A DNA stretch of 64,000 nucleotides, from the NCBI RefSeq assembly GCF_058153355.1, contig NZ_CM177019.1. One strand, 5' to 3'. How positions within the stretch are numbered: position 1 is the stretch's first letter; the number at the start of each line of letters is the position of its first letter. This document shows positions 20,130 through 20,909 of this stretch, in pieces. Below the pieces are notes generated by a model that was not told the origin of the DNA, made no database searches, and was given only the letters and a program-made list of their open reading frames with translations. Both the position numbers and the translations under genes were made by a program.

Positions 20130-20909
20130 AACCTGTTCCTTATTCTGTGAACTTCAGGTGACATTAAAGCTTTACTCCTAATGGAGAATCGACGCAATCC
20201 CAACTCAGTCAAACAGGTAAATATTAGTGTGATTATTAGTAAATACAATTAATCAATCACTCTCGGTGATCATATGATTTCAACTGTAATTATAAGAAAA
20301 TAATGTACTGATTCTCCATATCAAACAAGTGGTTAATATATGTAAAACATTTTATTAACATTAAGTTGATTGTTGCCTTTCTTTGTATTTAATTAGTTTG
20401 TTGTGCGGTAAGTGTCTGTTTAAAAATAGCTTATCGGGTATTGCATTAAAGCAATTATTTATAGCAGATGATTATTTACGGTGAGTTATTTTAACTGTGC
20501 GCAACATCCCATTTCGATTATTCCTGTTTCATTTTTACTTGCTATCGTAGCGAAAAACTTTTTAACAGATTGAAATACACCCAAAACAAAAGTATGACTT
20601 ATACATTTATGTTAAGTAATTGAGCGTTTTGTGTGATCTGCATCACACATTATTGAAAATCGCAGCCCCCCTCCGTTGTATGTGAGTGTAGTGACGAGTA
20701 AAGTTGCGTCGATTTAGGAAAAATCTTAGATAAGTGTAAAGAACCCCTTCTATTTGTAAGGACTTATTAAATCCAAAAAAGGGGCTCTGCCTATTGCAGC
20801 TTATCGCAACTATTCTAATGCTAATTATTTTTTACCGGGGCTTCCCGGCGACATCACGGGGTGCGGTGAGACCGCATAAAAATAAAGTTGGTTATTCTGG
20901 GTGGGAATA

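Follow-up and report, generated by a model that had tools for sequence, protein, structure and literature searches.

An insertion sequence-free region upstream of flhDC in a 64-kb stretch of Escherichia coli DNA

Insertion sequences (IS) located upstream of the flagellar master operon flhDC raise motility in stocks of Escherichia coli K-12 (PMC11237407, PMC5493358, PMC8652233), and these papers uphold what an earlier note on the present DNA had stated about this effect. The flhDC locus that was analyzed here, which lies in a stretch of 64,000 nucleotides referred to as the window, raises the question of whether its upstream region is likewise occupied by an IS element and what the occupied or empty state can tell about the control of flhDC, the motility and the lineage of the strain. 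The data presented below are best explained by the ordinary IS-free uspC-flhDC intergenic region of a non-K-12 E. coli strain, a reading to which we assign a probability of about 0.92.

The interval between uspC and flhD

The earlier note had described a region of approximately 780 bp upstream of flhD, and the distance from the start codon of uspC to the ATG of flhD amounts to exactly 780 bp (Table 1). The gene order downstream of flhD is flhC, motA, motB and cheA. Only a single open reading frame of at least 40 amino acids touches the interval, namely a frame of 40 amino acids at positions 20126-20248 that overlaps the start of uspC, so that the claimed absence of a transposase gene is borne out. 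The IS end sequences that served as queries were taken from the comparator loci of the MG1655 type (IS1) and of strain T159A (IS5). The best matches in the interval showed 10-11 mismatches in 23 positions for the IS1 ends and 5-7 mismatches in 16 positions for the IS5 ends, and the statement that no terminal inverted repeats of IS elements are present therefore holds for both elements. In the whole 64-kb window, no match to an IS1 end was obtained at up to three mismatches, and the IS5 end yielded one chance-level match at position 10460, outside the interval. A target-site duplication, which the earlier note had named as a sign that would speak against an uninterrupted region, is likewise missing from the interval: a repeat search for direct repeats of this kind returned only short, chance-level repeats, and the IS1 and IS5 sites are both present in single copy. 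An Rfam scan of positions 19600-21400 revealed no family in the interval and one weak, sub-threshold match (E 0.91) within uspC. Pseudogenes and a prophage with an IS600-carrying relative in FDAARGOS_944 might hint at Shigella or EIEC as the source; no IS elements were seen in the examined parts of the window.

Table 1. Features of the flhDC locus and of flhE in the window
Feature	Positions	Strand	Description
uspC	19701..20129	-	ORF of 142 amino acids; protein identical to annotated uspC of 2020CK-00188; left boundary, divergent
uspC/flhD intergenic regulatory region	20130..20909		780 bp; uninterrupted; collinear with IS-free alleles
AT-rich upstream zone	20200..20500		GC 25-33% (composition profile); holds one of the two mapped IS sites
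IS5 site of the K-12 derivative T159A, TTAA	20361..20364		single-copy, empty in the window
IS1 site of MG1655 and 2FA, CATTTATG	20604..20611		single-copy, empty in the window
CRP site TGTGATCTGCATCACA	20632..20647	+	lies about 72 bp ahead of the transcription start; consensus bases in both half-sites
Core flhD promoter (predicted)	20676..20704	+	-35 TTGTAT (20676-20681), 17-bp spacer, -10 TAAAGT (20699-20704)
flhD 5' leader	20712..20909	+	198 nt; start at 20712; GGA at 20717-20719 and 20759-20761; TTAGGAAAAATCTTA at 20714-20728
flhD	20910..21260	+	intact; protein identical to the K-12 type; ATG at 20910
flhC	21263..21841	+	full length; R39C, TGC at 21377-21379
flhE	36134-36526		E100* at 36431-36433; last 31 of 130 residues removed

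The interval also proved to be uninterrupted in an alignment with IS-free and IS-bearing flhD upstream sequences, the check that had been proposed along with the initial observation. When compared with four IS-free alleles and with the MG1655 allele from which IS1 had been removed, the interval displayed substitutions and single-base indels only and no gap of more than 1 bp. The length of the intergenic region is 779 bp in the IS-free alleles of UTI89 and ERL06-2497 and 780 bp in those of KKo009 and 2020CK-00188. The interval is 100% identical to that of 2020CK-00188 and 98.6% identical to that of KKo009, with the same order of elements in all four strains, whereas it differs from that of most E. 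coli by about 4% substitutions. It is thus collinear with the reference alleles from uspC to flhD, as is characteristic of the native, IS-free class.

Strain MG1655 differs from the window by a 768-bp IS1 with a duplication of CATTTATG that lies about 300 bp ahead of the flhD start codon, and both flanks of this site align to the window at 96.6-97.4%. A 768-bp IS1 is present at the same site in 2FA, with the duplicated CATTTATG on both sides of the element. In T159A, the TTAA site is occupied by an IS5 with a length of roughly 1.2 kb, as 1194 bp separate the two aligned flanks; both strains encode K-12-type proteins. Removal of IS1 from MG1655 or of IS5 from T159A makes each of the two sequences collinear with the window. 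Destabilised AT-rich DNA upstream of flhD was described as the target zone of IS5 (PMC5493358). The AT-rich target zone of the IS5-activated strains T159A and BW25113 mhpR::km (PMC11237407) is also present in the window, but IS5 is absent there. Two clinical strains differ from the window in another way, since an IS1-associated deletion took flhD through part of tar in E05 and the DNA between yecH and the flhD upstream region, including uspC, in TUM13881, whereas all of these genes are retained in the window. With respect to the class of IS-activated flhDC alleles, neither an IS1, IS5 or IS3 element between uspC and flhD nor a target-site duplication was found. The flhDC upstream region of the window is free of IS elements; the original observation is confirmed but describes an ordinary state for which an explanation already exists.

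Frequency of the IS-free state and lineage of the strain

The frequency of uninterrupted alleles was determined with the hot zone at positions 20300-20720, a query of 421 bp that is short enough for IS1 to split the match, and a genome was counted as uninterrupted when at least 80% of the query was covered in one place. According to this definition, the hot zone is uninterrupted in 5246 of 5419 complete E. coli genomes (approximately 97%). Three interrupted records were seen in the tail of the listing, belonging to 2FA, T159A and CV601gfp (O16:H48); the inserted element was identified in 2FA (IS1) and T159A (IS5). The full intergenic region is covered to at least 80% in one place in 5271 of 5421 genomes, and it is at least 99% identical in only 15 of the 5421. 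The empty region is the default of the species E. coli and says nothing special about lineage: since nearly all E. coli possess an IS-free region, the intact state of the interval is uninformative in this respect, and because the absence of IS elements is the default, asking whether it exceeds chance is the wrong test here. IS-bearing flhDC alleles are largely a phenomenon of K-12 laboratory stocks.

Laboratory stocks of K-12 had been the frame in which the earlier note viewed the region, and this frame turned out to be misplaced. Across the locus, the window shares 96.6-97.6% identity with MG1655, and the near-identity that would mark the K-12 laboratory lineage was not observed. The window is not K-12, and the expectation derived from laboratory stocks is therefore the wrong baseline. 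The best complete genomes are only 98.9-99.0% identical to the window, and a contig of SRR31441161 in the Logan collection is 100% identical over 20.3 kb at positions 26134-46433, a range that does not include the interval at 20130-20909. The stretch from 18000 to 24000, which comprises otsA-uspC-flhDC-motAB, shows only 9 differences from 2020CK-00188, whereas the flanks diverge by 1-3%; this pattern represents an ordinary recombination mosaic. A further difference from 2020CK-00188 concerns the small protein YecU (yecU 4058-4234; 58 amino acids), in which four amino-acid differences are clustered within the eight residues 12-19. That the flagellar master operon of this strain has a standard wild-type upstream architecture is a useful note for genome annotation, and it guards against expectations from K-12 laboratory stocks being put on a natural isolate.

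Coding changes in flhC and flhE and their bearing on motility

The absence of IS elements, combined with a nonsense codon in flhE, had been taken to suggest a wild-type-like rather than hyper-motile lineage. This conclusion is weak, as the absence of IS elements does not predict motility. Changes in lrhA or clpX and point mutations in the promoter raise motility as well (PMC8652233, PMC11237407), and because these act likewise, a region without IS does not imply a strain that is not hyper-motile. The nonsense codon itself is real and results from a GAA to TAA change, but it constitutes a lesion and not a sign of the wild type, since 31 of the 114 mature residues seen in the solved structure of FlhE (4QXL) are lost. 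The exact truncated FlhE protein was detected in only three Logan contigs, one of which shows 100% identity with the window along 20.3 kb. Deletion of flhE in Salmonella left swimming normal at native levels of flhDC, whereas about 30% of the cells died and motility was reduced when the deletion was combined with strong constitutive flhDC expression (PMC11247099). Because the loss of flhE in Salmonella becomes costly with strong flhDC expression, the truncation and the unactivated promoter of the window would form a compatible pairing and not a marker of the wild type. By the same analogy, the flhE nonsense allele would penalise any up-mutation of flhDC.

The second coding change affects the regulator itself. 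Position 39 of FlhC is occupied by arginine in 105 of 109 cluster representatives and by lysine in the remaining 4, and the arginine is also kept in the distant solved homolog 8J56_C. A search of 5160 complete E. coli genomes gave no instance of the R39C exchange encoded in the window. In draft assemblies, the same codon change was seen on five or more flhC haplotypes, a pattern suggestive of recurrent mutation, and several NCBI assemblies that share only 97.4-98.0% identity with the window encode the R39C protein. Searches of the literature on FlhC R39C and on the PDB entry 8J56 yielded no results. Since the exchange hits a position that is always basic and is absent from the complete genomes, the output of flhDC may be altered despite an intact promoter.

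These changes lead to an alternative reading, in which motility is set or impaired downstream of the promoter: the R39C exchange would weaken the regulator, the flhE truncation would make high flagellar expression costly, and the lineage would be drifting to reduced motility, with the integrity of the promoter being uninformative. It draws on the basic residue in all 109 representatives and in 8J56_C, on the absence of R39C from complete genomes, on the extent and rarity of the FlhE truncation, on the dead cells observed in Salmonella and on other decay nearby, represented by the nonsense codon Q89* in araG and a frameshifted prophage integrase. On the other hand, the flagellar and chemotaxis genes of the window are largely preserved, as the proteins encoded by flhD, motA, motB, cheW, cheR, cheY and cheZ are identical to those of 2020CK-00188 and cheA, cheB, tar, tap, flhB and flhA are of full length with 2-8 substitutions each. 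Moreover, swimming persists without flhE at native flhDC levels, and the occurrence of R39C on several haplotypes indicates that the exchange is at least tolerated. We consider this reading possible but rather unlikely. It appears doubtful, in particular, that the lineage has been lowering motility after the transcription of flhDC by means of R39C and the flhE nonsense codon behind an intact promoter. If R39C were recurrent, selected and attenuating, it would represent a natural route to less flagellation that is distinct from the routes via promoter changes, IS elements or deletions. The flhE truncation and the R39C exchange of FlhC, both located outside the interval, could affect motility independently of the promoter and are the points worth carrying forward. 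When compared with the closest complete genome, FlhB (flhB 32915-34063) carries the exchanges S43C and I136M, and FlhA shows the non-conservative exchange L537R (35664-35666).

Promoter and leader of flhD and the question of native control

Among the regulatory elements of the interval, the palindrome TGTGATCTGCATCACA is the known CRP site of flhD, which was reportedly described by Soutourina et al. in 1999. The right half-site is perfect in all four non-K-12 comparators; K-12 alone deviates, its last base being a G. Within the leader, TTAGGAAAAATCTTA presumably represents the RcsAB box and the GGA motifs are assumed to be CsrA sites. Both GGA motifs are unchanged in comparison with K-12, and no difference from K-12 occurs between -11 and +32, a stretch that covers TTAGGAAAAATCTTA and the first 31 nt of the leader. 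The last 118 nt in front of the flhD ATG differ from K-12 in one base.

The transcription start of flhD is located 198 nt upstream of the ATG according to published coordinates (PMC9600491), and the positions of the promoter hexamers were inferred from this start site. A consensus scan for promoters and terminators gave counts no higher than those of shuffled sequences and did not pick out the weak, activator-dependent flhD promoter, so that the placement of the promoter rests on the published start. H-NS and other repressors are listed as binding to the flhD upstream region (PMC5493358). The elements that are typical of the native class, including a CRP site near -72, the hexamers and the leader of 198 nt, are thus present at the level of the sequence. 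With these elements and the leader start in place and the region free of IS, the claim that flhDC is under native control is reasonable with regard to the anatomy and reaches no further. The level of flhDC expression and the motility of the strain can only be inferred from this anatomy: transcription of flhDC would begin about 198 nt ahead of the flhD start codon and be driven by the usual sigma-70 promoter that depends on CRP, the usual repressors would keep silencing the operon via the AT-rich upstream DNA, and the long flhD leader would be subject to post-transcriptional control.

In total, roughly 32 substitutions and a single-base insertion separate the interval from the K-12 allele. The differences include the substitutions -27 C>A and -11 C>A, a cluster from +32 to +80 and the 1-bp insertion at position 20772. 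The K-12 core promoter accordingly possesses a C at position 20685 and the -10 hexamer TACAGT in place of the TAAAGT of the window. These differences open the alternative that the region is IS-free but not functionally native, with one or more substitutions shifting flhDC expression up or down relative to common alleles; candidate changes are the perfect CRP half-site, -27 C>A, -11 C>A and the leader cluster. Such an effect would be in line with the substitutions seen in the alignment and with published motility-activating mutations that include point mutations in the flhD upstream region (PMC11237407). However, the perfect CRP site is common to all four non-K-12 comparators, and the base at position 3 of the -10 hexamer is non-consensus both before and after the -11 change. 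Furthermore, the core promoter allele from -57 to +19 was found as an exact match in 262 of 5382 complete genomes, and for this reason -27 C>A and -11 C>A are best regarded as standing natural polymorphisms. Altered expression due to these substitutions is accordingly an improbable alternative to an ordinary IS-free region. A former IS element that was excised precisely from the flhD upstream region, a process that might be suggested by a Keio strain in whose population IS5-bearing and IS5-free copies of this locus were reported to coexist (PMC11237407), is extremely improbable and unparsimonious in view of the lack of a scar or duplication, the base-for-base identity with another natural isolate and the IS-free state of approximately 97% of the genomes, which makes such a history unneeded.

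Additional observations concern the parts of the window that are more distant from flhDC. The araG gene (14813-16327), which specifies the ATPase of the high-affinity arabinose ABC transporter, is a pseudogene owing to a CAG to TAG change at positions 15077-15079, and the adjoining araF gene contains a 6-bp insertion at about 14494-14500. A lambdoid prophage lies at approximately 47640-64000, adjacent to yecE and downstream of cmoA and yecN, and a frameshift divides its integrase gene (47644-48952, minus strand). Its best-matching relative is present in FDAARGOS_944 and contains many copies of IS600, and CFSAN029787 holds another related prophage.
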